Assembly: GCA_963719085.1 (NCBI GenBank)
Contig: CAVRAL010000004.1
Location: 320,001-384,000, forward strand
Source of the DNA: a candidate division FCPU426 bacterium
GTDB taxonomy: Bacteria; Oederibacteriota; Muellerivitia; Muellerivitales; Muellerivitaceae
DNA: 64,000 bases
Direction: 5' to 3'
This document shows, piece by piece, positions 3,090 through 14,000 of this stretch (positions are counted from its first letter, which is position 1; the number at the start of each line of letters is the position of its first letter). The position numbers and the translations under genes were made by a program. The notes beneath the pieces were generated by a model that was given only the letters and a program-made list of their open reading frames with translations, ran no database searches and was not told the DNA's origin.

Positions 3090-3674
3090 TTAGCCTTTCG
3101 CGGCGGCGGCCGCGTCCATTTTCTCGATCTGCTGGATCGTGAATAAAATCTCGTCGTCCGTGGGCCGGTCCTGCGGATTTTGTCCCACGTACTTGAAACG
3201 GATTATTTTGGTGGGATCGATAATGACGACCGCGGGGCGGCTGATGTCTTTCCCATCGTGGCCCTGGGGATGCCGCACGCCGAAGGCGTCGATCAGCTTT
3301 AATTGGGTATCGGCCAAAAGCGGGAAAGGAAACCGCCATTGCTCATTGAAGGCCGCCGCGTCCTCGACCGGATCCACGCTCACGGCCGCGAGGGCCGCAT
3401 GCAGGGTTGAGAATTTCTCGAAATCATCCTTCAGGTTTAAAAGCTGGTTTTGGCAGGCCGAGCACCAATGGCCCCGGTAAAAAACGAGCACCAAATACCA
3501 TCCGGGTTGAAGATCGGTGGATTTAAAGAAACGGCCGTCGCAGTTCTCCAGGGTAAAATCCGGGCATTTTTGCCCCAGCCCCACCACGCCGGCGGTCGAG
3601 GAGACCGAGGAACTGGGGCCGCAACCCGCCAGTAATAGTGAGACCGCCGCCGCGAAAACGAGGGTACGCTTCAT
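3090..3674 (-). CDS. Peroxiredoxin-like (AhpC/TSA, redoxin) lipoprotein
   Basis: Lipobox LLAGC; PDFTL, FYRGHWCSAC (CxxC), AVSVD, FPLLAD, RPAVVIID. Confidence 0.85.
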   Translation of the reverse strand: MKRTLVFAAAVSLLLAGCGPSSSVSSTAGVVGLGQKCPDFTLENCDGRFFKSTDLQPGWYLVLVFYRGHWCSACQNQLLNLKDDFEKFSTLHAALAAVSVDPVEDAAAFNEQWRFPFPLLADTQLKLIDAFGVRHPQGHDGKDISRPAVVIIDPTKIIRFKYVGQNPQDRPTDDEILFTIQQIEKMDAAAAAKG

Positions 3675-3783
3675 AAGGATAAAACCTTTTAAGTCGGGAT
3701 TAAAAACGCGAAAGGATTTGGAAGCCCCGCGCTTTCTTCAAAACCTATTCTATCGCATCCCGGCGTTAAATTTTCAAAATCCG

Positions 3784-3813
3784 TTGACAAACCCCGGAAG
3801 CCCTCCCAATAAT
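3784..3813 (+). promoter_or_regulatory. Putative sigma70 promoter of leader peptide 1 (TTGACA-N18-AATAAT)
   Basis: Perfect -35 at 3784-3789, AATAAT at 3808-3813; same architecture as 8653-8682. Confidence 0.65.
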
Positions 3814-3849
3814 ATTTTTCGTTTCCGATCCGCTTCCAAGGCGCGTGGC

Positions 3850-4137
3850 ATGTTCCGATTCCGAAAAATTTCATTTTTCATCGCCTTGCTGGGCCTCACC
3901 GCCTTCGCGTCCCTTTCGGTGGCCGAAAACTTCCATCACCACGGCGACCTGGAAAGCCACGATGACTGCGCCATGTGCAGCTGGCAACAGGTCGATTCCA
4001 AGGCCACCGTCTCCGCCGCTCCCCCACAACTGATTCCGCTATTCGCGGTTTTGGTTTTAGAGATTGTTTCTTTCCCTTGGTTTTCCTTCCGGATGGTGCA
4101 AGCTTCCGGCAGGTCCCCCCCGGTTTCCATCGCTTAA
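3850..4137 (+). CDS. DUF2946/CruR-like metal-sensing leader peptide 1 (95 aa; HHH, CxxC, C-terminal GRSPP)
   Basis: C-terminal part of track ORF 3517..4137 from ATG 3850: hydrophobic N-terminus, ENFHHH, CAMC, GRSPP; colinear paralog at 8711..8998. Confidence 0.85.
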   Translation: MFRFRKISFFIALLGLTAFASLSVAENFHHHGDLESHDDCAMCSWQQVDSKATVSAAPPQLIPLFAVLVLEIVSFPWFSFRMVQASGRSPPVSIA

Positions 4138-4280
4138 ACTTCAATTGAGCGGGAAAACCGGGAACAGGTCTTTTTTAACCCTTTCCGTCTTTTCGTTTTA
4201 AAACCCTTAAAAGCTTGTTCCTGTTTCTTTTCCCCCGGAAACCACGCTTGCGCGTGGTTTCTAAATCCCTTTTTAATTTT
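4119..4280 (+). promoter_or_regulatory. Putative attenuator: alternative stems plus a 10-bp hairpin followed by T-rich tracts
   Basis: 4145-4162 can pair with 4119-4137, while the overlapping 4151-4168 can instead pair with 4214-4234; perfect hairpin GAAACCACGC-TTGC-GCGTGGTTTC at 4238-4261. Confidence 0.6.
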
Positions 4281-4355
4281 TAAATCGACCAAGACCGGCC
4301 TCGAGGTTCAAAAACCTTAAGGTTTGGCCCTAAATCCTATTTGGAGGATATTTCA

Positions 4356-6785
4356 ATGAGATTCGTTTCCCGATGGTTTTGGCTTTTGTTTCTGTGTTGG
4401 GGTTTTAATGTAAGCGTCGCCCGCGCGACAGTTGACGGCGCCATTTCAGGCACCGTTTTGGATGACAAAGGCGTCGCGGTGCCCAACGCGAAGGTGACGA
4501 TTACGGGCAACGGCACTGAAAAGGACGTGGTGTCTTCAGCGACAGGAACTTTCCAGGCCTTTCCCTTAACCCTGGGGGATTACCAGGTTCAAGTTCAAGC
4601 GGACGGCTTTAGCCCCTATCAAGAAACCGTCGCGGTTTCGGGCGGCACCTCGTCCCTGGCGGTGGTCTTGCTGCCATCCGGTGAGATGCAAATGACGGTG
4701 AAAGCCAAACATCTGGTCTCCTCCGCGCCCGACAGCAGCCGGGCGTTAAATAAAGATGATATCGCCCAACTGCCGGGAGGCTCCACGACGAACCTTCCGA
4801 AATTGCTTTATACCACCACAGCCGGATTCGTGGAGGGTGACTTCGGGCAAGTCTTTACCCGGGGCAACCACGCCAACTTGCAATACCAGATCGACGGCAT
4901 CCAATTGCCCGATTCGGTGGGCGGCTCCTTTGGGGAAGCCTTCACCCCGGTCAACATCGACCACATGGAAATTTTAACCGGCGGCCTCCAGCCGGAGTTC
5001 GGTTCCCGCATGGCCGGCGTGGTGAATATCGTCACCAAGTCGGGCGCGATCACTCCCGGCGGTGAAATCGGCCTCAGCTACGGTTCCTACAACCAGACCG
5101 CCGATTACGCCAGCTACGGAGGGTCTGACGCCTCCGGAGCTTTTCATTACTACCTCTCGGCCAATTCCTTTTCCACCGACCGCGGGTTGGACACTCCCGC
5201 GCCGGCCGACATCAACGCCGACCAGAATGGCGGGAGCGAACAGGCGGTCCATGACAAAAGCTACGGCACGGACGCTTTCTTGAAGCTTGATTGGGTGGCG
5301 GACAACTCCAACAAGTTTGACCTGATCGCCTTCAGCGAGGACAAATTTTTCCAAATCCCGGACTATCCCAGTTCCTTTGATCCGGGCGGACCCAACTTCC
5401 AGTATTTCCTCAGTTCGGGGGATATCTACGGGAACGTCGTGAACTACGTTCCTTCCACCACCAACGACACCCAAGCCGAAGCCAACAAGTACATTGAATT
5501 AGCTTGGCGGCATAACTTCGGCGACGATTCTTTCCTTCAAATAGCGCCCTATTGGAAGGAATCCAACATCACCTTCACCAACGATCCGCAGGACGATCTG
5601 GCGGCGGCCTATAACACGCAGATCCAGGATCAGAACTCGGGGACGCCGTTCAGTATTTCCTCTTTCTCCGAGGACCGCACCAGCGACAACTATGGGACGC
5701 AGGCGGATTACACCTGGCACGCGGACGCCAACAACCTGGTCAAGATCGGGGGACAGGCCCTTTTGACGCAATCTTCCGGCCCCGTTTCCGTTACGGAAGC
5801 CAATTTTGACGGAACCCCGGGAGATCCGATCACGGTGGATGGCAGTGGGGATAATTCTACCGATGTGGGTTACCAAGAAGGCCTGTACGTCCAGGACGAA
5901 ATGGATCTGGCCAAGGGGCTGGTCTTAAGCGGGGGCGTGCGCTTTGACGCCATCCAATTTACCTTCCCGGGAGCGAATTCCAACGACAGCATGCTGGAAC
6001 CCCGGGTCGGCCTCAGCCTGCTTCCGGCCGAAGGTACCAAGATCCATTTCTTTTACGGCAAGATGTTCATGCCGGCCCCGCCGGAGGATCTGCGGGACAC
6101 CTTCGTCAATTTGGGCCAAGGGAACAGTTTGACGCCTTACGACCTCAAGGCCGAGAAGGACGATTATTTCGAAACCGGAATCGCCCAGCAGGTGGACAAC
6201 CAACTGTTCACCTTGAACGCTTACTACAAATACGCGTTGAATATGCTGGATGAAAACCAGCTTTTGAACACGGCTATCGCCCAACCCTTCAACTTCGCCT
6301 CCGGCTACGCCTATGGCCTTGAATTTTCCATGCGCGGGGAACTGGCCAAGGACTGGACTGATTTCGCCAATTATTCCTACGAGATCGCTAAGGGGCAGGG
6401 AATCAGCGGCGGTATCTTCGCCTTCCCCCCGGGGACCGATTTCGAACCTGGCGTCTACCAGTTCCTGGACCATTGCCAAATCCACACAGCCAACGCCGGA
6501 TTGACCTATAACCCCGGTGATATTTGGCTCACCGCCGAAGGTCTTTTTGGAGGGGGTTTGAGCACCGGCCCGGACAACACCTTGAGACTGCCGTCCCATT
6601 TCACCATGGACGCCACGGTGGGTTACGCCTTTCAGAAAGACAGCGGCCTATCAGGGATGAAAGCCAGCCTGGACGCGCTGAATCTCTTTGATAACCCCTA
6701 CACCATCTTCGTCGCCAATGGTTACAACGGGAATCATTACGAAAACGGACGGGAATTCATCTTCCGTTTGGCCAAGGTGTTCTAA
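4356..6785 (+). CDS. TonB-dependent outer-membrane receptor with N-terminal carboxypeptidase-regulatory-like domain
   Basis: Signal peptide, ISGTVLDDKG..VPNAKV domain, plug motifs (YQIDG, ILTGG..PEFG....GVVNIVTK), NLFD and terminal Phe; RBS GGAGG before ATG 4356. Confidence 0.93.
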   Translation: MRFVSRWFWLLFLCWGFNVSVARATVDGAISGTVLDDKGVAVPNAKVTITGNGTEKDVVSSATGTFQAFPLTLGDYQVQVQADGFSPYQETVAVSGGTSSLAVVLLPSGEMQMTVKAKHLVSSAPDSSRALNKDDIAQLPGGSTTNLPKLLYTTTAGFVEGDFGQVFTRGNHANLQYQIDGIQLPDSVGGSFGEAFTPVNIDHMEILTGGLQPEFGSRMAGVVNIVTKSGAITPGGEIGLSYGSYNQTADYASYGGSDASGAFHYYLSANSFSTDRGLDTPAPADINADQNGGSEQAVHDKSYGTDAFLKLDWVADNSNKFDLIAFSEDKFFQIPDYPSSFDPGGPNFQYFLSSGDIYGNVVNYVPSTTNDTQAEANKYIELAWRHNFGDDSFLQIAPYWKESNITFTNDPQDDLAAAYNTQIQDQNSGTPFSISSFSEDRTSDNYGTQADYTWHADANNLVKIGGQALLTQSSGPVSVTEANFDGTPGDPITVDGSGDNSTDVGYQEGLYVQDEMDLAKGLVLSGGVRFDAIQFTFPGANSNDSMLEPRVGLSLLPAEGTKIHFFYGKMFMPAPPEDLRDTFVNLGQGNSLTPYDLKAEKDDYFETGIAQQVDNQLFTLNAYYKYALNMLDENQLLNTAIAQPFNFASGYAYGLEFSMRGELAKDWTDFANYSYEIAKGQGISGGIFAFPPGTDFEPGVYQFLDHCQIHTANAGLTYNPGDIWLTAEGLFGGGLSTGPDNTLRLPSHFTMDATVGYAFQKDSGLSGMKASLDALNLFDNPYTIFVANGYNGNHYENGREFIFRLAKVF

Positions 6786-6819
6786 AGCGAAAGGTTGGGT
6801 TTAAAAGCGACAAGGCAGC

Positions 6820-6846
6820 GCCGGTTGGGTTCAGAGCCCAACCGGC
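6820..6846 (+). terminator. Strong hairpin after the TonB receptor (terminator-like or mRNA-stabilising)
   Basis: GCCGGTTGGG (6820-6829) / CCCAACCGGC (6837-6846); no clean U-tract follows. Confidence 0.45.
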
Positions 6847-6991
6847 ATCTTGCCCTTCTATAAAAAAATAAATTGATAGGCAGGTATCCCTTTAGGGGTT
6901 GCCGTTTTCAAAATCCAGATTCAGCGTCATTTTTGGGTACCACCCATATGACGCCGGATGTGGTTTTTGATAACAATCAAAAGGAAAAGAA

Positions 6992-7627
6992 ATGGAACAG
7001 ATTTTCGACGGTTTTAAATTTATCTTCCGGGGCGGCTTCATGATGCTTCCCCTGCTGGCCTCCTCCCTGATCGCCCTAACGGTCATCATCGATCGTTGGA
7101 AGGTTTTCCAAAAGCAATACAAGACGCCCGAGGGCTTCCTGCTCAGGGTGTTGAAAAAAATAAGGGAAGGCAACGTGGCTGAGGCCCAAAAGGATTGTGA
7201 TGGAAAGGCCTTCCCCGTAGCGGCGGTTTTGAAAGCGGGGATCACAAACCTCAAGAGTCCCGCCGCCGAAATGGAAATCGCCATGAAGAACGAGGCCGAA
7301 AGCTGGATTCCGGTTTTGGAAAAAAGGATTCATGTCCTGGATACCATCATCACCATCGCTCCCCTGATGGGCCTCTTGGGAACTATCCTGGGAATGATGG
7401 GCTCCTTCAAGGTGCTGACCCAAAGCGGGGTGGACGACCCCTATTCGATCACCGGCGGCATCGCCGAGGCCTTGATCGCCACGGCCACCGGCATCATCAT
7501 CGCCGTGCTTTGCGTGATCGCGATGAATTATTTCAACACCCTGGTCAAAAACCTGATTTACGAGATGGAGTCGGCGGCCTCCTACCTGCAGGAAACCCGC
7601 ATGGGCTTTGAACGGGGTAAAAAATAA
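6992..7627 (+). CDS. exbB: ExbB/TolQ/MotA proton channel
   Basis: GGFMMLPL, TIITIAPLMGLLGTILGM, GGIAEALIATATG. Confidence 0.92.
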   Translation: MEQIFDGFKFIFRGGFMMLPLLASSLIALTVIIDRWKVFQKQYKTPEGFLLRVLKKIREGNVAEAQKDCDGKAFPVAAVLKAGITNLKSPAAEMEIAMKNEAESWIPVLEKRIHVLDTIITIAPLMGLLGTILGMMGSFKVLTQSGVDDPYSITGGIAEALIATATGIIIAVLCVIAMNYFNTLVKNLIYEMESAASYLQETRMGFERGKK

Positions 7628-8037
7628 TGCAGGTACGGCAAAAACCCATCAAACGAATCCGGATTGAGATCATCCCCATGATCGACGTCATTTTTTTCCT
7701 GTTGGTTTTTTTCATGGTGACTTCCCTGGCCATGACCCGCATCAACAGCATCAAGGTAGTGCTCCCGAAGACTTCAGGAAAAGCGGAAAATCCCCGGCAG
7801 AACGTCATCTTGACGGTGAAAAAAGACGGCTCCCTGCTCATTAACAAAACGCCTGTGACCTTAGACACCTTGGGAAGCCAGTTGGTGAGCGTGATGCAGG
7901 CCGACCCCCAAGGCGTGGTCATCGTGAACGCCGACGAGGGCGCCCCCTATGGCCAAGTCGTTCAAGCCATGCAAAAGGCCAAGGACGCCGGAGTACGGAA
8001 ATTCGCGTTGGCCGCAGAAGCCGGGGAAGGAAAATAA
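7627..8037 (+). CDS. exbD: ExbD/TolR biopolymer transporter
   Basis: IEIIPMIDVIFFLLVFFMV; NADEGAPYGQVV. Confidence 0.93.
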   Translation: MQVRQKPIKRIRIEIIPMIDVIFFLLVFFMVTSLAMTRINSIKVVLPKTSGKAENPRQNVILTVKKDGSLLINKTPVTLDTLGSQLVSVMQADPQGVVIVNADEGAPYGQVVQAMQKAKDAGVRKFALAAEAGEGK

Positions 8038-8039
8038 CC

Positions 8040-8615
8040 ATGCCGATAATCCGCCTGGATTCAAATACGGAACCTCTCGTCCGGTCAGCCGGACTCGCCA
8101 TCGGCGTGGAATTTCTTTTTTTTCTGGCTCTAGGGCTAGGTCATTTGTCCCTTTTTCATAACCGCTTCGACGACGCGGTGGATGCCCAAATCGTGCAGTT
8201 ATCCGACGCTCATTTGTCCGGAGCCCAAGCCACTAGTCCCGATGATGATGTGGTTTTTAACCCCCGGCACAAACCCAAGCCGGCCAAGAAACCAACCCCT
8301 CCCAAAACCGAGCAAAACCAAGTGGACGCGGGCCCAGACCTGGGGCCCACCCACGGGCCAGTCGCGCTCTACGCGCCCCAACCCGTCATCCCCTCCTATT
8401 TAAGGGATCAAAACCTGAAGACCAGCGTGGTGATTGAATTTTTGGTCACAGCGCAAGGCCAAGTCACTTGCCGGCTTTTGGAATCCAGCGGGAGCGACGA
8501 GCTCGACGCCTTGTCGATCCAAACCGCCGAAAAATGGCGGTTCAAGCCCGCCGCCCAGGACAATGTACCCCTCGATTCCAAAACCCGATTGCGCATTTTA
8601 TTTGAGGTGGATTAA
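8040..8615 (+). CDS. tonB: Energy transducer TonB
   Basis: TM segment with His, Pro/Lys-rich linker, TonB C-domain (SSGSDELD...KWRFKPA); follows exbBD. Confidence 0.85.
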   Translation: MPIIRLDSNTEPLVRSAGLAIGVEFLFFLALGLGHLSLFHNRFDDAVDAQIVQLSDAHLSGAQATSPDDDVVFNPRHKPKPAKKPTPPKTEQNQVDAGPDLGPTHGPVALYAPQPVIPSYLRDQNLKTSVVIEFLVTAQGQVTCRLLESSGSDELDALSIQTAEKWRFKPAAQDNVPLDSKTRLRILFEVD

Positions 8616-8652
8616 CCCTGTTTTTCACTCAACCCATGGTCCGTCCGCCGGA

Positions 8653-8682
8653 TTGACAGTGCCAGCTCCGCCCTCTAATAAT
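8653..8682 (+). promoter_or_regulatory. Putative sigma70 promoter of leader peptide 2 (TTGACA-N18-AATAAT)
   Basis: TTGACA 8653-8658, AATAAT 8677-8682; GCCCTC in the spacer as in the first copy. Confidence 0.65.
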
Positions 8683-8710
8683 GGCCCCCATCCAGAACTG
8701 GAAGAGGGCC

Positions 8711-8998
8711 ATGCGCGGTTTCAAACGTTCTTTTTTAAGATGGGGAATTTTATTTTTCCTTCCCTTCCTGATTTCAATCATGACCGTGGAAACATCCCAC
8801 CATCACAGCCCTCTGGAACCCCAGGACAACTGCTCCATTTGTAGTTGCCAGCAAACTGGTTCCCAAGCCGCCACCTTGCCACTGCCGCCGACATTGCTTC
8901 CAACCTTTATCACGGGTTTATTACTTCTAACTTTTTCTTTTATCATTCCCCCGTCCCTCATATCCTCCACGGGCAGGTCCCCGCCCGTCCTCCTGTAA
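8711..8998 (+). CDS. DUF2946/CruR-like metal-sensing leader peptide 2 (95 aa; HHH, CxxC, C-terminal GRSPP)
   Basis: ATG 8711 after GAAGAGGG; hydrophobic N-terminus, ETSHHH, CSIC, GRSPP; same length and spacing as 3850..4137. Confidence 0.85.
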   Translation: MRGFKRSFLRWGILFFLPFLISIMTVETSHHHSPLEPQDNCSICSCQQTGSQAATLPLPPTLLPTFITGLLLLTFSFIIPPSLISSTGRSPPVLL

Positions 8999-9033
8999 TT
9001 TTTCGAGCCGTTTTGAAAAAATACACAGGAGGA
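8988..9033 (+). promoter_or_regulatory. Anti-Shine-Dalgarno hairpin sequestering the RBS of the porin gene
   Basis: TCCTCCTGT (8988-8996) is the exact complement of ACAGGAGGA (9025-9033); inner stem TTTTTCGA/TTGAAAAA. Confidence 0.75.
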
Positions 9034-9037
9034 ATTC

Positions 9038-10144
9038 ATGAGAATTCATCGTTTTTATTTTATTTTGGCCTCCCTTTTGGGAGTGGCTTTCGCCGGGGGG
9101 GCCCAGGCCCAAACCCGGTCGATTATCTCCAACTTGGCCAATCCGGCCATCGGCATGAGCGCGTTGTTTTTGGGCCAAGCCGCGCCGAACATCGCCGCCC
9201 CCTACGGCATTAAATTCCAGGAAGCCGAATTGAGCGTCATCTCCACCGTGGATCCTTATTGGACCCTGGCCGCCAATTTGGTGTTTGAGGGCGATCCTAA
9301 AACCGGCATTCCCGACTCGGTGTCGGCGGAAGAAGCCTACGCCACCACCGACGCCATCCCGGGAATCACGTTCAAGATCGGGGAAATCCGGGCGGATTTC
9401 GGAAAACACGGACTGCTTCACACCCACGCTTTTCCCTTCATCCAAGCCCCCATCATCATGGGCAACAGCGTGGGCCAGGAAGGCTTCAAGGACGCGGGCG
9501 TGGAAGGCGCTTGGCTGACGCCCCTGCCTTGGTACTGCGAACTGACCCTGGGCGCCTACGGATCGGTGGCGGCCTCGGGCGACCATCCGCTGAATTTCGC
9601 CGACGCCTCGCACGACAATATTCCCTACCTGATCCATCTCAAAAATCTTTTCGACGTGGATGACGACACCACGATGGAATTAGGCGGATCGGCCCTGACC
9701 GGCATGGGTGACGACGGCCTGCACCACGCCGTTTATGGCGCGGACCTGACTTTCCGCAATGTGCCGCTTCAACAATCCAACCAACGGGGATGGATTCTGC
9801 AGGGCGAGTACATCAAAAAAGTTTCCTTTGATGACAACGCCTATAACCAGGAAGCGGACGGCTGGTATACCTCGTTCCAATATCGCTTGGCCCAGGAATG
9901 GTGGACCGGCATCCGGATGGAAGAGTGCTATAACGCCACACCGGACCTGGATGTGGACTCCACGGAAAATTCACTCGCCGGCAACGTCAAGCGCGCCTCG
10001 TTCAATGTGGCTTGGCTGGCGTCGGAATTTTCGCAGGTGAAGGCCGAATATAGCTACGCCCAAAACGACGCGGGCCAGGGCGATAACCGGGTGATGCTGC
10101 AGTTTAACTATGTGATCGGATTCCATCCGCCCCACTCTTATTAG
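9038..10144 (+). CDS. Outer-membrane porin-like protein associated with metal uptake
   Basis: Signal peptide, amphipathic beta strands, His motifs LHTHAFPF and C-terminal IGFHPPHSY; lies before ABC substrate-binding and permease genes. Confidence 0.7.
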   Translation: MRIHRFYFILASLLGVAFAGGAQAQTRSIISNLANPAIGMSALFLGQAAPNIAAPYGIKFQEAELSVISTVDPYWTLAANLVFEGDPKTGIPDSVSAEEAYATTDAIPGITFKIGEIRADFGKHGLLHTHAFPFIQAPIIMGNSVGQEGFKDAGVEGAWLTPLPWYCELTLGAYGSVAASGDHPLNFADASHDNIPYLIHLKNLFDVDDDTTMELGGSALTGMGDDGLHHAVYGADLTFRNVPLQQSNQRGWILQGEYIKKVSFDDNAYNQEADGWYTSFQYRLAQEWWTGIRMEECYNATPDLDVDSTENSLAGNVKRASFNVAWLASEFSQVKAEYSYAQNDAGQGDNRVMLQFNYVIGFHPPHSY

Positions 10145-10195
10145 GACGGAGCGGATTCAAAAAATTTGTGGTTTAAAAAATCAAGGAGAAAACTC

Positions 10196-11110
10196 ATGAA
10201 ACGTCTAAGCGCTTTTTTAGTGCTGCTCTTCGGTTGCTTGATCGCCTTGCCGGCTTTCGCGGATTTGAAAGTGGCCACCTCCCTTTCAGATTTGGCGTCG
10301 GTGGCCCAATTCGTGGGAGGCAAACACGTCACGGCCATCAGCCTTTGCAAAGGTTATGAGGACCCGCATTTTGTCCCGGCCAAACCCAGTTTGATGAAGG
10401 CCATCCAGGACGCCGATGTATTCGTGTCCGTGGGGCTGGAGTTGGACGGGGGCTGGCTGCCCTTGGTCATCCCCGGGAGCCGCAATCCCAAAATTCAGCC
10501 GGGCGCCGAAGGCTTCGTTGACGCCTCGGAAGGCATTGATGTTTTGGATAAGCCCGTCGGCACCGTCAGCCGGGCGGAGGGGGACATCCATCCTTTGGGC
10601 AACCCGCATTACTATGGCGACCCGAAAAATCTGGAAATCGTGGCGGATCATTTGACCCAAATTTTTTCGGATTTGGACCCGGCCAACGCGGCGGACTACG
10701 CGGCCAACGATAAGGCCTTCGACGCGAAAATGGACGCGTCGATCAAGGGCTGGGAGGCTCAGCTGGCTCCTTATAAGGGAAATTCGCTCGTGTCCTACCA
10801 CGAGAATTTCAAGTATTTCACCAACCGGTTTGGCTTGAAGGTTTTCGGAACCGTGGAGTCCAAGCCCGGCATTCCGCCGAGCCCCCGATACCTATCGGAC
10901 ACGGCCGACGCGATGAAAACCGCCGGAGTGAAGGTCGTTATCTACCAGCCTTACTATGACGCCGACGAGGCCAAGCAATTAGCGTTGAAAGCCGGGGCCA
11001 CCGCCTATGAGATTCCTAATGAAGTGGGCGGCGTTCCGGAGGCCAAGGACGTTTTCTCGAAATTCGACTTCATCGTGTCGACTTTAGTTCAAGCCTACGG
11101 GGGAAAATAA
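10196..11110 (+). CDS. Metal (Zn/Mn) ABC transporter substrate-binding protein, ZnuA/TroA family
   Basis: EDPHF, GNPHYY, LDPANA..Y..N, SYHENF.YF, KPGIPPSP motifs; ATG 10196 after AAGGAG. Confidence 0.92.
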   Translation: MKRLSAFLVLLFGCLIALPAFADLKVATSLSDLASVAQFVGGKHVTAISLCKGYEDPHFVPAKPSLMKAIQDADVFVSVGLELDGGWLPLVIPGSRNPKIQPGAEGFVDASEGIDVLDKPVGTVSRAEGDIHPLGNPHYYGDPKNLEIVADHLTQIFSDLDPANAADYAANDKAFDAKMDASIKGWEAQLAPYKGNSLVSYHENFKYFTNRFGLKVFGTVESKPGIPPSPRYLSDTADAMKTAGVKVVIYQPYYDADEAKQLALKAGATAYEIPNEVGGVPEAKDVFSKFDFIVSTLVQAYGGK

Positions 11111-11115
11111 GCGCC

Positions 11116-11940
11116 ATGTCCAACTTTATCGAGGTGATGGGTCTTCCGATTTTGGCCTGCTTGCTCCTCGGCCTCATCCTGCCCTCCTTGGGCCAGCATG
11201 TGCTGGCCCGGGGAGTCATTTTCGTGGACTTGGCCTTGGCTCAAATAGCGGCGCTGGGACAAAGCGTGGCCTTTTTGTTGGGGGCCGACCCCCATGATCC
11301 GGCCACCTACTATTGGTCCCTGGGATTCACCCTATTGGGCGCGGCCCTTTTTAGTTTTTTGTGGGACCGCAACCATTCGGTTTTTCAGGAGGCCTTTATC
11401 GGAATCGCCTTCTCCCTGGCGACGGCGGCCACCCTGTTGGTCTTGTCCAATTCCCCCCACGGCGCCGAGCACGTGCAGGGAACCTTGAGCGGGGAAAGCC
11501 TGGGCTGGGTCGCTTGGAAAGACGTGGCGCTGATGGCGGTCATTTACGCCCTCGTCGGCCTGTTTCTTTTTTTCAACCGCCAGACCTTGGCGCTTTGTTC
11601 CGCCGACCCCAAAGAGGCCCAAAAGCAGGGACTGTCCCTGAAACTTTGGGATTTCCTTTTTTACGCGGGCTTCGGGCTGGTCGTGACCGACGCGGTTCGG
11701 GTTTCGGGCGTGCTGGCGGTCTTTTCGTTTCTGATCGTGCCGATCGTCTGTTCGACCCTTTTGGGCATGAAAGGAAGACCGCGGCTTTACCTGGCCTGGG
11801 GATTGGCGTGGCTGGCTTCGATCATCGGGTCCGGGTTTTCCTATTGGAAGGACTGGCCCATGGGCGCCACCATCGTGTGCGTATTCGGGCTATCGGTGAT
11901 TGTTATCTCGGCCTTCACAAGAATGAGAAACGTCGAATAG
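11116..11940 (+). CDS. Metal ABC transporter permease, ZnuB/MntB family
   Basis: G.HVLARGVIFVDLALAQ, EAFIG, GVLAVFSFLIVP, WPMGATIV. Confidence 0.9.
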   Translation: MSNFIEVMGLPILACLLLGLILPSLGQHVLARGVIFVDLALAQIAALGQSVAFLLGADPHDPATYYWSLGFTLLGAALFSFLWDRNHSVFQEAFIGIAFSLATAATLLVLSNSPHGAEHVQGTLSGESLGWVAWKDVALMAVIYALVGLFLFFNRQTLALCSADPKEAQKQGLSLKLWDFLFYAGFGLVVTDAVRVSGVLAVFSFLIVPIVCSTLLGMKGRPRLYLAWGLAWLASIIGSGFSYWKDWPMGATIVCVFGLSVIVISAFTRMRNVE

Positions 11941-11948
11941 GCAAAAGC

Positions 11949-12094
11949 TTGAAACACAGAGTGACACGGAGTTACACAGGGCGAGGATTAAAATTATTTT
12001 TGATTAAGCCATTAATTTTAAACATTGGGGGAACCTAAAGCTTTGGTTCTCAAAAAGATTTACTCTGTGTAACTTTGTTACCTCCGTGTTTCAA
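11949..12094. repeat. Intergenic inverted repeat, family B, between convergent genes
   Basis: TTGAAACACAGAGTGACACGGAGTTACACAGGG (11949-11981) vs CTCTGTGTAACTTTGTTACCTCCGTGTTTCAA (12063-12094); related copy at 30564-30653. Confidence 0.8.
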
Positions 12095-12099
12095 AAGCC

Positions 12100-12381
12100 T
12101 TAATATTTTGCCTTCGCCTTGGTCTTCTTCTTTTTGGCCGGCGCTTTTTTGCGACGCTTGGCGGCCTTTTCCGCTTCCGACGGTGGCAGGGCTAACTGCG
12201 GCTTGGCGGTTTCGGGCTTGTCGGCCGCTTTCGGCTCTTCTTTAACGCTTTGGCCGCTGGAAGCCTTTTTAAACTCGTCCATGAACTGGCCGATGGCCTT
12301 GCCCAATCCCGGAAGCTTGTCTTTTCCAAAAAAGAAAAGGGCCACGACCAAAATGAGCAGTATTTCTTCAATGCGTCCCAT
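12100..12381 (-). CDS. tatA: Twin-arginine translocase TatA/E subunit
   Basis: MG..EILLILVVALFFFG..KLP.LGKAIG....EFKKA. Confidence 0.85.
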   Translation of the reverse strand: MGRIEEILLILVVALFFFGKDKLPGLGKAIGQFMDEFKKASSGQSVKEEPKAADKPETAKPQLALPPSEAEKAAKRRKKAPAKKKKTKAKAKY

Positions 12382-12482
12382 GCGAAAAACTCCTGAGTTT
12401 TAAGATGGGGCCATTCTATTCAGTCTTCGGCCACTTCGCCAGTGGAATGGATGTTTCCTTCCCATCCTTTTGACGAAACCTA

Positions 12483-12884
12483 TTAAAGCCCTAAAAATAA
12501 TTTCAATCGACGGCGAATTTCATCTCTTACTTCCTGGAAGCTTTTTAGCTTTTCTTCATCCGTCGTGGCTCCCTTTCCAGGGTCGGGCAGCGGCCAATGA
12601 ATTCTTTCAGCCTTCCCTAAGAAAACTGGACATTCTTCCTCGGCGCAAAGGGTGATAACCGTATCCACCGTCGCCGGGTCGATCTCGGCCACGGACTTGG
12701 AAGTCTGGCCGGAAATATCGATTCCGATTTCGGCCAGGGCCTTGATTGATAAAGGATTCACGAAAGACGGCTTGGAACCGGCGCTTTGAATCAGGCCTTT
12801 ATCGCCCAAAAGATGCTTGGCGATGCCTTCCGCCATCTGGCTGCGGCCCGAATTGGCCACACAAAGAAAAAGAATTTTTTTCAA
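12483..12884 (-). CDS. arsC: Arsenate reductase, thioredoxin-coupled LMW-PTPase fold
   Basis: [17 protein letters not shown] (CX5R), SAGS, VITLC....CP resolving cysteines, HWPLPDP. Confidence 0.9.
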
Positions 12885-12887
12885 GGC

Positions 12888-13571
12888 CTACTCCTTGTTG
12901 TTTTTCAAGTTGGCGGGCGCCAGCCGGATCGACTCATAAAACAACGCGGCAAGAACCGCCCCAAGACAAGGCCCTACCACATAAATCCACGTCCCATTCA
13001 AATGTCCCTCAAAGACCGCGGGGGCCAGGGACCGTGCCGGATTCATGGAAGCCCCCGTGACCGGCCCACCCACCCAGGCCGCTAGCATGACAGTTCCGCC
13101 AATCGCCGCGCCCGCCATGGTGCCGACCGCGCGGGTATCCGTGGCCACCGCCACAATCACGAACATCAGAAAAAAGGTCAGGATCATTTCCCAGCTCAAA
13201 GCTTGCCCATTCGGCACGGCGGGAATGGTGGCTCCATAAGAAACACCGGATGGAAGAATCATTTTGAGGATGCCGATAGCGGCAAAAGCCCCGATGAGTT
13301 GAGCGGCCCAATAGGCCAAAACCTGCTCAAAGGGAAAGTGGCGGGCTACGGCGAAGGCCAAGGTCACGGCGGGATTGAAGTGGGCTCCCGAAATATGCCC
13401 CACCGCGTAAATCATGACCGCCACCGCCAACCCAAAAATAACCGGTACGACCGCCTGCGAAAGGGTCCCCGGAAACCGCTCCGCGACCATGAGGCTTCCG
13501 CATCCGGCGAAGACGAGGGTAAAGGTCCCCATGGCCTCGGCCAGGGACTTCTTAAGAAGGATATTCTTCAT
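12888..13571 (-). CDS. MIP family aquaporin/aquaglyceroporin (probable arsenite channel)
   Basis: Two NPA motifs (ISGAHFNPAVT, GASMNPARS); lies immediately upstream of arsC; start 13571 or 13577. Confidence 0.92.
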   Translation of the reverse strand: MKNILLKKSLAEAMGTFTLVFAGCGSLMVAERFPGTLSQAVVPVIFGLAVAVMIYAVGHISGAHFNPAVTLAFAVARHFPFEQVLAYWAAQLIGAFAAIGILKMILPSGVSYGATIPAVPNGQALSWEMILTFFLMFVIVAVATDTRAVGTMAGAAIGGTVMLAAWVGGPVTGASMNPARSLAPAVFEGHLNGTWIYVVGPCLGAVLAALFYESIRLAPANLKNNKE

Positions 13572-13607
13572 CTCCAACTAGCTCGCGTTTGCAAGTTGAT
13601 CCCCCTA

Positions 13608-13982
13608 TTACTTTTTCTTCCCCACCCACTCGCCCAAAACCGACTTCAATTTCTTTTTCATGCCCTGAAGTTCCTGGATTTTCCCCTCAAACTCATCGAT
13701 CTTGGCGGTGAACAAGTCCACCGTCAGGTCGCAACAGGGGCCCAGACCCTTGTCCCCGCAACAGGTGATTTTCTTTATTTCTTTGAGCGTCAGCCCCATG
13801 GCTTGGGCTTTGCGGATGAACTCCAATTGGTCCACCGCTTCCTTGGGATAAATCCGAAAGCCGCCTTCGCTCCGGGAAGGCTCGTTCAGCAGCCCCTCTT
13901 TTTCGTAATAGCGGATCGTATCGATGGACGTCCCGCTTTTTTGGGCCACTTGACCGATTTGAAGGAATGGATTTTTTTTCAT
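13608..13982 (-). CDS. MerR family transcriptional regulator
   Basis: IGQVAQKSG.SIDTIRYYEKEGLL...RSEGGFRIY...FIRKAQAMG.TL.EI; coiled-coil C-terminus. Confidence 0.93.
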   Translation of the reverse strand: MKKNPFLQIGQVAQKSGTSIDTIRYYEKEGLLNEPSRSEGGFRIYPKEAVDQLEFIRKAQAMGLTLKEIKKITCCGDKGLGPCCDLTVDLFTAKIDEFEGKIQELQGMKKKLKSVLGEWVGKKK

Positions 13983-14000
13983 GGCGTCAGCTCCCAAACG

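Follow-up and report, generated by a model that had tools for sequence, protein, structure and literature searches.

A DUF2946/CruR-like upstream reading frame and an anti-Shine-Dalgarno hairpin precede a porin gene and putative metal-uptake genes in an uncultured candidate division FCPU426 bacterium

Introduction

In the candidate division FCPU426 bacterium of assembly GCA_963719085.1 (GTDB lineage Bacteria; Oederibacteriota; Muellerivitia; Muellerivitales; Muellerivitaceae), a porin-like gene's Shine-Dalgarno (SD) sequence is the exact complement of the last codons of a small upstream open reading frame (uORF). Does this complement make a switch, and what could operate it? The window studied here is a stretch of 64,000 nucleotides (nt), positions 320,001 to 384,000 of the forward strand of contig CAVRAL010000004.1. 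Coordinates are window positions, on the plus strand unless stated otherwise. A model-made note on the bare sequence, called here the original prediction, had placed a second leader peptide at this site. In that proposal, a ribosome paused at its Arg-Ser-Pro-Pro (RSPP) codons melts a hairpin over the porin ribosome-binding site, in the manner of SecM and MifM, and metal ends the pause. Our analysis suggests that the uORF (8711-8998) probably encodes an arrest peptide of the DUF2946 (CruR/CutF) kind, which senses metal and acts in cis. The uORF would head an uptake operon for the porin, a ZnuA-like protein and a permease of the ABC-3 (ATP-binding cassette) family. The best reading of the locus, by analogy, is a CruR-type sensor coupled to a CutF-type stem-loop that masks the SD.

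Both models for this reading come from cultured bacteria. CruR (Bp2923) of Bordetella pertussis is a DUF2946 protein in which a CxxC motif is followed, after 45 residues, by an RAPP motif 3 residues from the C-terminus (PMC9426467). According to the same report, mutations of RAPP abolish expression of the downstream receptor gene, mutations of CxxC abolish copper control, and the CxxC-RAPP spacing stays within 1-2 residues across more than 2000 family members (PMC9426467). The arrest of CruR has been shown in vitro, one of the two Pro codons occupying the P site and the other the A site (PMC12992588). Stalling on CutF is described as melting an SD-shielding stem-loop (PMC9973294; bioRxiv 10.1101/2025.02.05.636593), and Ozturk et al. 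proposed a widespread occurrence of stem-loops that stalled CutF-like proteins unfold (PMC9973294). RAPP-like peptides, among which RSPP is listed, are reported to stall in every case with the codon of the third residue in the P site (PMC10987492). RSPP itself is given as arrest-permissive in ApdA/ApdP, was recovered in random arrest screens and is under-represented in proteomes (PMC12992588).

Results

Masking of the porin ribosome-binding site

In the frame of ATG 8681, the 3' end of the uORF reads GGC AGG TCC CCG CCC GTC CTC CTG TAA. The codons GTC CTC CTG and the T of TAA (stop at 8996-8998) make up the anti-SD arm TCCTCCTGT (8988-8996). The SD arm of the porin gene, ACAGGAGGA (9025-9033), ends 4 nt upstream of ATG 9038. 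The original prediction had called these arms exact 9-nt reverse complements, and direct reading of the sequence bears this out. It had also proposed an inner stem closing one long hairpin. Positions 8999-9007 indeed pair with 9012-9020 across a 4-nt loop, with one G-U pair, in the minimum-energy fold. When 8960-9050 was folded alone, the long hairpin was both the minimum-energy and the centroid structure (-31.2 kcal/mol). Shuffles of the same segment gave a mean of -17.6 ± 3.4 (z = -4.05), and 0 of 200 folded as well.

The masking was assessed by the comparison that had been suggested with the prediction, a fold of 8960-9050 with and without 8970-9000 held single-stranded. In the free RNA, every base of GGAGG is unpaired with a probability of at most 0.003. 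With 8970-9000 forced open, this probability rises to 0.19-0.36 for four of the five bases. The fifth base stays inside a hairpin of two GAATTC hexamers (9032-9047).

How often does such a complement arise? Across the entire 3.04-Mb genome, a scan gave 378 sites at which GGAGG precedes a start codon with 100 or more open codons. A perfect complement of at least 9 nt that covers GGAGG and lies within 70 nt upstream was present at 2 of the 378 sites, the porin SD being one. The other lies outside the window, on the minus strand of contig C4 at about 205.4 kb, and has the 10-nt complement TGGAGGAGGG. A search of 3600-9300 against all 4227 Rfam families at E ≤ 1 gave no match; the element is none of the known riboswitches or leader RNAs. 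Between 8998 and 9038, nothing resembling a terminator was found.

Two further features lie close to the hairpin. The paired GAATTC hexamers hold the porin AUG (9038-9040) in a 4-nt loop; their hairpin survives the in-silico opening of the main hairpin, and none was seen in relatives. A second UCCUCC (8963-8968, Ser-Ser codons) is located directly behind the footprint of a ribosome arrested at 8981.

The upstream gene and its family

The uORF encodes 95 amino acids (aa) from ATG 8711 or 105 aa from ATG 8681. Upstream of it there is a sigma-70-like promoter sequence, TTGACA-18-AATAAT (8653-8682), assigned from 11 of 12 consensus matches only. The start is probably ATG 8711, because the -10 element overlaps ATG 8681. 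In agreement with this, relatives begin M-x-F-F-R-K, and a word-indexed protein search with the uORF returned only two matches, the closest database proteins, both of 95 aa. The term "leader peptide" used in the prediction therefore does not fit, as this is a protein of about 95 aa with an export-like N-terminus and not a short leader.

The product has a basic N-terminus, a hydrophobic segment, HHH, CxxC, a second hydrophobic stretch, and G-R-S-P-P-V-L-L directly before the stop. By eye, the N-terminus is export-like, with basic MRGFKRSFLR followed by about 17 hydrophobic residues. The His-His-His codons are at 8798-8806; the first His is invariant in the family and the other two nearly so. 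The CxxC motif (C-S-I-C, 8831-8842, residues 51-54 in the 105-aa numbering) is presumed to be a metal ligand. The RSPP codons AGG TCC CCG CCC (8975-8986, residues 99-102 in the same numbering) encode a RAPP-like motif 3 residues before the stop. Toeprints of RAPP-like peptides and of CruR offer the precedent for placing an arrest here (PMC10987492, PMC12992588). By this analogy, the P site would be expected at 8981-8983 and the A site at 8984-8986. The spacer from CxxC to RSPP is 44 residues in both copies in the window, the second copy being a paralogue at 3850-4137.

For both copies, the sole Pfam match was DUF2946 (PF11162), with E-values of 0.024 and 0.0073. It lies at the C-terminal end of the model, spanning positions 50-117 of 117. 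NCBIfam at E ≤ 10 gave no match for either uORF or for the porin. We then drew 34 relatives from related genomes by a pattern that permits 35-55 residues between CxxC and RxPP. The spacing from CxxC to R turned out to be 44 in 21 relatives, 45 in eight and 46 in five. The tail after Pro-Pro (PP) has four residues in 26 of them, three in three, two in three, and six and seven in one each, and 32/34 have RxPP at a distance of 2-4 residues from the C-terminus. When 35 sequences were aligned (31% mean column identity), no columns were invariant except H30, C41, C44, R89, P91 and P92. The second residue of R-x-P-P is S, A or G, and the window has S, not the canonical Ala. At E ≤ 0.1, 21 of the 35 gave a match to DUF2946 (best 2.1e-5), while any other family was matched by at most one. 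The CxxC...RxPP pattern was not found in L011, L075, L077 and L078. On these sequence features, the uORF is filed as a divergent member of the CruR/DUF2946 group. Lacking an above-threshold family assignment, these 95-aa genes would escape annotation or be labelled hypothetical.

Conservation among relatives

A profile built from the two window copies was used to search 61 related genomes. The uORF family was found in 30 of the 61, among them 27/30 of the same taxonomic family and 2/2 genomes of one other family in the phylum, with multiple copies in many genomes. The related records are metagenome-assembled genomes labelled variously as proteobacterium, Eisenbacteria, Udaeobacter and Acidiferrales. 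The uORF-porin junctions are built alike. A pyrimidine-rich tail with the stop codon is followed by a short G+C inner hairpin, by ACAGGAGG or AAAGGAGG, and by the start codon.

In folds of each locus anchored on its SD, the SD core (4-5 of 5 bases) is paired with the uORF tail in 20 of 20 junctions. The larger set of 26 loci comprises these 20 junctions, further copies from the same genomes and one locus from the porin search; here the core pairs with the tail in 25. The 26 loci are not independent, because they are related, and L056 and L061 are near-identical. One more locus, L049, was left out of the set because its downstream porin reading frame is degenerate; it pairs 4/5 SD bases. The spacer between uORF and porin is 39 nt in the window and 36-50 nt in 25 of the 26 porin-class loci.

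The complement outlasts changes in the protein. Tail peptides vary widely (VLL, FSL, NLL, ILL, HLL, LPL, FPL, YPL, QAS, FAS) and the codon phase of CCUCC differs among loci, while the SD complement is retained. The GGAGG:CCUCC core cannot vary, and only the flanking pairs can. In the per-locus folds, these flanking pairs do change. The SD-2 pair is G-C (12) or U-A (4), SD-3 is U-A (14) or G-C (4), and SD-4 is G-C (3), A-U (3) or U-A (4). In a MAFFT alignment, pairs form in 82.4% of cells; with the partner displaced by 1-3 columns, the figure is 37-53%. Both sides have changed in 17 cells, compared with 1-8 in the displaced controls. Covariation scores 0.192, while the displaced controls reach at most 0.107, and 0 of 500 shuffles attain the observed score. 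At the position of the inner stem, the window and its relatives keep a stem of different sequence, one of its pairs being U-A (11) or C-G (7). The covariation that had been proposed as a check on the anti-SD is thus found, as compensatory changes at flanking and inner-stem pairs. From the same alignment RNAalifold derived no more than a weak consensus (-6.35 kcal/mol), owing to the misalignment of L030, L031 and the inner stem of the window. The case for conservation is accordingly made from the SD-anchored per-locus folds and the pair counts, not from RNAalifold.

The SD complement is kept at the RNA level. The parts of the element are present and conserved, and they mask the SD thermodynamically.

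The proposed switch and the reach of the ribosome

By analogy with CruR, CutF and the RAPP peptides, the locus may work as follows. A ribosome translating the uORF would arrest while its P site (8981-8983) holds RS-Pro-tRNA and its A site Pro-tRNA. The front of this ribosome would enter the base of the helix, from +8 onward, and weaken the anti-SD:SD pairing. A second 30S subunit could then initiate on the porin gene, and the operon would be ON. Metal would bind the HHH/CxxC region freshly emerged from the exit tunnel and relieve the arrest. Termination would follow, the hairpin would re-form, and the uptake genes would be OFF when metal is plentiful. An arrest motif beside an anti-SD hairpin, a translational switch for the porin and a metal signal had all been predicted originally. 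They find support in the CruR features of the uORF, in the recurrence of the hairpin and in the CruR and CutF literature. The metal is most plausibly zinc or copper; the HHH/CxxC ligands and the transporter do not settle its identity.

To see how far an arrested ribosome could reach, positions were numbered from the base that opens the first Pro codon, where the P site is expected. In the window, the anti-SD lies at +8 to +16 and its CCUCC core at +9 to +13. In relatives, the core is mostly at +12 to +16 (overall +9 to +16), and in L072 the SD pairs with the Pro codons themselves. Takyar et al. in 2005 reportedly found that the ribosome holds mRNA single-stranded to about +11 to +13 and excludes nucleases to about +15. 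The CutF papers cite Takyar et al. on the ribosome's helicase activity. With the anti-SD at +8 to +16 and such a boundary, the arrested ribosome would enter the helix and need not cover the anti-SD. The prediction that a paused ribosome covers the anti-SD would thus hold for entry at +8 and not necessarily for full cover.

The cost of opening the SD was calculated for the 26 loci in five states. In the free mRNA, the median is 8.9 kcal/mol and the window value 11.2 kcal/mol. With the mRNA single-stranded to +11, the values are 7.8 and 5.5 kcal/mol; to +13, 4.5 and 4.4 kcal/mol; and to +15, 3.4 and 5.8 kcal/mol. A ribosome at the stop codon leaves a median of 3.5 and a window value of 6.2 kcal/mol. 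The residual cost in the window is due to the GAATTC hairpin and to the upstream UCCUCC (8963-8968), which can take the place of the main anti-SD in silico. On whether the anti-SD is tied to the arrest motif or to the stop codon, the loci point both ways. L021, with its stop at +28 and the core at +12 to +16, fits a tie to the motif. The window, with a three-residue tail and the core at +9 to +13, fits the opposite, a tie to the stop codon.

These values also bear on a different order of events. The arrested ribosome might park before a closed helix, and only terminating ribosomes would open the SD; metal would then prolong the arrest, as in CutF, and uptake would again be off. In most loci the anti-SD core indeed lies at +12 to +16, opening to +11 barely changes the cost (8.9 to 7.8), and a terminating ribosome brings it to 3.5 kcal/mol. 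Yet the helix of the window begins at +8, so that an arrested ribosome would already open several pairs, and the helicase boundary used here is an approximate figure. As described for CutF, metal induces stalling and does not relieve it (PMC9973294). On the other side, in the published RAPP, SecM, MifM and CutF cases considered it is the stalled state that exposes the downstream SD (PMC9973294). Taken together, we consider the parked ribosome unlikely. Both polarities are self-consistent, and both are OFF at plentiful metal. We prefer the one in which arrest opens the SD and metal relieves the arrest, which is the logic of CruR.

Comparison with known arrest systems

The uORF shares with CruR the position of a small, export-like uORF first in a metal-uptake operon, a CxxC about 45 residues before R-x-P-P, and R-x-P-P 3 residues from the C-terminus. 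The paralogue in the window, like CruR, precedes a gene for a TonB-dependent receptor. Unlike CruR, the uORF has RSPP in place of RAPP and an additional invariant His cluster, and its DUF2946 score in Pfam is under threshold. The downstream genes encode a porin, a ZnuA-like protein and an ABC-3 permease, unlike those of CruR, and therefore the metal may not be copper. CruR is followed by a 162-nt spacer and acts through Rho-dependent termination (PMC9426467), whereas here a 39-nt spacer carries the SD-masking hairpin. The authors of the CruR study call its arrangement with the 162-nt spacer incompatible with translational coupling (PMC9426467).

CutF of Rhodobacter capsulatus is likewise a DUF2946-related, exported uORF product of less than 150 aa with a C-terminal Pro motif and an SD-shielding stem-loop. 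It has CxxxC and an EF-P-dependent PPP, and it controls a detoxifying multicopper oxidase that copper switches on (PMC9973294). The uORF differs in having RxPP and in building the anti-SD from its own last codons. With CxxC and RSPP and without CxxxC or PPP, it is CutF-like at the RNA level and not a CutF orthologue. With an uptake operon as its target, it would be expected to have a polarity opposite to that of CutF. Besides applying a signal-peptide filter, Ozturk et al. selected proteins of less than 150 aa with PP among the last 15 residues and a same-strand neighbor within 1000 nt. The uORF has 95-105 aa, PP at -5/-4 from the C-terminus and a same-strand neighbor after 39 nt.

A C-terminal R-x-P-P in a small exported uORF is also found in ApdA/ApdP and the RQH family (PMC10987492, PMC12992588). 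In these peptides, in SecM (RAGP) and in MifM, the stalled ribosome exposes a downstream SD (PMC10987492, PMC12992588; PMC10951233). These arrest peptides monitor Sec or YidC upstream of secA, secDF or yidC and have no metal ligands, unlike the uORF. The uORF is not a homologue of theirs, and the genes downstream of it are those for the porin, the ZnuA-family protein and the ABC-3 permease. Contrary to the label "SecM/MifM-like" in the prediction, the closest relatives are CruR and CutF, with SecM and MifM more distant.

The layout of the locus would also suit plain translational coupling, in which the hairpin does no more than link translation of the porin to that of the uORF. The uORF product would then be a small metal-binding protein, located in the membrane or periplasm, with a function of its own alongside the porin and the transporter. 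In nearly all loci, the anti-SD extends over the final sense codons and the stop codon, which is the classic coupling layout, and the protein has two hydrophobic segments and conserved metal ligands. However, it is poorly conserved outside the His, the two Cys and R-x-P-P (31% mean identity), and what is fixed, R-x-P-P and its distance of 44-46 residues from CxxC, is the signature of the regulatory CruR family. In addition, CruR and CutF are reported to act in cis only, their mature proteins being undetectable (PMC9426467; PMC9973294). We regard coupling without regulation by arrest as quite unlikely.

Another possibility is that, as in CruR, control acts chiefly on transcription. At the C-rich 3' end of the uORF, the arrested ribosome would then stand in the way of Rho or of an attenuator, and the part of the SD hairpin would be a secondary one. 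The sensor is CruR-like (CxxC, 44 residues, RxPP), the uORF does end C-rich, and the 218-nt spacer of the paralogue, with a strong hairpin and a U-rich tract, would suit such control. It is very unlikely for the porin operon. The spacer has only 39 nt here and 36-50 nt in 25 of the 26 loci, the conserved structure engages the SD specifically, and 8998-9038 yielded no terminator-like site.

Composition controls and contrary evidence

The tail of the uORF owes its high C/U content to codons for Pro, Ser and Leu. In a first control, the whole tail from the first Pro codon to the stop was shuffled. In a second control, only the tail after PP was shuffled, and the energy needed to free GGAGG was the measure. 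In the second control, the real sequence lay above at least 95% of its shuffles in 17 of the 26 loci, with medians of 8.9 for the real and 5.85 for the shuffled sequences. The window gave 11.2, against 8.4 ± 0.6 for its shuffles, and 0 of 100 were as high. The 9-nt helix of the window thus exceeds what composition gives, which is not so for every relative. As the tail shuffles indicate, the codons of the arrest motif by themselves supply some of the SD masking.

Several results count against a metal-sensing arrest peptide that opens the SD. In the first control, at least 4/5 SD bases still paired in 70% of shuffles on average, and in the second, nine of the 26 loci (L005, L007, L012, L023, L035, L056, L061, L072, L074) did not rise above their shuffles. 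L074, a porin-class locus with RDPP and a six-residue tail, has no SD pairing. In most relatives the core lies at or slightly past the reported helicase boundary, and holding the mRNA open to +11 lowers the median cost merely from 8.9 to 7.8 kcal/mol. Once the main anti-SD of the window is blocked in silico, UCCUCC 8963-8968 and the GAATTC hairpin 9032-9047 can partly cover the SD region again. On PF11162, the two copies in the window reach 15.8-17.5 bits, against a gathering score of 23.7. Arrest, the metal response and SD control are all argued from analogy. RSPP is called merely "partially permissive" in ApdA/ApdP (PMC12992588).

Were the pairing a functionless by-product, with Pro, Ser and Leu codons giving a C/U-rich tail that pairs with any strong purine-rich SD 40 nt downstream, pairing of the core in 70% of shuffled tails and nine of 26 loci no better than their shuffles would be natural, but this is highly improbable, as the perfect 9-nt complement of the window (2/378 genome-wide) beats 100 of 100 tail shuffles, flanking pairs outside CCUCC co-vary, the inner stem is retained with a different sequence, and the complement persists while the tail peptide changes.

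Downstream genes, paralogue and neighborhood

The uORF heads a metal-homeostasis operon, with the promoter-like site upstream and the genes for the porin, a ZnuA-family protein and an ABC-3 permease downstream. The porin-like outer-membrane protein (9038-10144, 368 aa) is encoded directly downstream of the hairpin, which would control this gene first, and has a signal peptide ending ...AQA-QTRSIISNLANPAIGM. It gave a weak BBP2 match (E 0.022), and its closest clusters in the Atlas carry the name "putative Porin" (score 0.99). Searching with the porin found 14 related loci; a PDB sequence search with it at E ≤ 1 gave no match. The next gene (10166-11110) encodes a periplasmic metal-binding protein of the ZnuA family (PF01297, E 1.1e-45), whose best NCBIfam matches are AztC (zinc) and MntC, both far under their cut-offs. 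The ABC-3 family metal-transporter permease follows at 11116-11940, and no ATPase gene comes after it.

The product of the paralogous uORF (3850-4137) is likewise 95 aa long; it has HHH and CxxC and, 44 residues further on, RSPP with the tail VSIA. This uORF is 44% identical to the uORF at 8711-8998, and the genome has no further copies. It lies 218 nt upstream of a gene for a TonB-dependent receptor (4356-6785), which is followed by ExbB, ExbD and TonB genes. The gene order is therefore paralogous uORF, TonB-dependent receptor, ExbB, ExbD, TonB, uORF, porin, ZnuA-family protein and ABC-3 permease. The promoter-like sites at 3784-3813 and 8653-8682 are the two best sigma-70-like matches in 3600-12500. 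They are near-identical, with CCCTC directly 5' of each -10 element, and may be common to one regulator.

The leader region of the paralogue (3850-4360) folds better than its shuffles (z = -3.1). Near 4158, a stretch reading CCGGGAA pairs with the Pro codons of the paralogue. Farther 3', there is a strong 11-bp hairpin (4238-4262) followed by a U-rich tract, and the hairpin also occurs in L008 of the same genus. The hairpin and the U-rich tract are a candidate transcriptional attenuator in the manner of CruR.

On the minus strand beyond the operon, three reading frames were recognized by eye. One resembles ArsC or a low-molecular-weight phosphatase (12483-12884), one a MIP/aquaporin with NPA motifs (12888-13577), and one a MerR-like protein with a Cys-rich C-terminal part (13608-13997). 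Together (12483-13997) they could be a metalloid- or metal-responsive unit beside the uptake operon.

Other leaders of the family

Members of the uORF family also precede other genes. In a class upstream of TonB-dependent receptors (L015, L017, L019, L022, L024, L048, L051, L053), the tails are SILL or SIFP plus the stop. The tail and stop pair with a CAGGGGGAT-like "pseudo-SD" about 55 nt downstream, and a second conserved hairpin follows. As the spacers of this class are 168-183 nt, the pseudo-SD is not the SD of the receptor gene. A conserved mini-ORF of six codons after the pseudo-SD (L015, L017, L019) was considered and rejected as a side effect of the hairpin; L022 has no nearby stop.

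A third class (L057, L062-L065, L067-L069, L071) has the tails AVLS, VVLS and VVFS and lies 154-191 nt upstream of a reading frame that begins MKVLEIKNLKK and by eye resembles an ABC ATPase. The CGGGAAAACAA element directly after the stop is common to all leaders of this class. Finally, distant high-G+C relatives of the porin (L037, L041, L043, L044) have an upstream uORF with CxxC, 44 residues and RAPP or RSPP, and spacers of 104-131 nt. The stop-codon region of L043 and the Pro-Pro codons of L044 pair with the porin SD across a long loop.

Discussion

The logic proposed for this locus is essentially that published for CruR (2022) and CutF (2023, 2025), and its kind is already known. It is set apart by the joining of a CruR-type RxPP sensor to a CutF-type SD stem-loop, with the anti-SD in the last codons of the uORF itself. 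Distinctive, too, are the target, a porin and a ZnuA-type importer, and the host, an uncultured lineage. A literature search found no description of this arrangement of a DUF2946 uORF, an SD hairpin and a porin; Table S1 of PMC9426467 and File S1 of PMC9973294, which lay outside that search, might list the subfamily. The main text of PMC9973294 makes no mention of ZnuA, porin or ABC.

The position of the anti-SD core, near-fixed at +12 to +16 and so at the helicase boundary of the ribosome, allows a further thought. The hairpin and the arrest peptide could form a mechanical gate, and not a simple melt-on-stall device. The 26 natural loci, with their varied tails, spacer inserts and stop positions, amount to a series on how far into a helix an arrested ribosome has to reach before the gene downstream is turned on.

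A broader reading is tentative, and we hold it to be possible rather than probable. A single modular sensor (HHH, CxxC, 44-46 residues, RxPP) might serve a metal other than copper and be wired to at least three RNA outputs. These would be the SD-masking hairpin at porins, the decoy pseudo-SD hairpin with further structure at TonB-dependent receptors, and the long structured leaders at the ABC ATPase. Within this modular-sensor reading, zinc is the most plausible metal given the ZnuA/AztC-like transporter, and the uORF would then be the first zinc-responsive arrest peptide.

If the narrower reading of the uORF as a metal-sensing arrest-peptide gene is true, arrest-peptide regulators of the DUF2946 kind would extend beyond cultured Proteobacteria and beyond copper detoxification. 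Such regulators would then control metal import, through a porin and a ZnuA-type ABC system, in an uncultured lineage of soil or peat.

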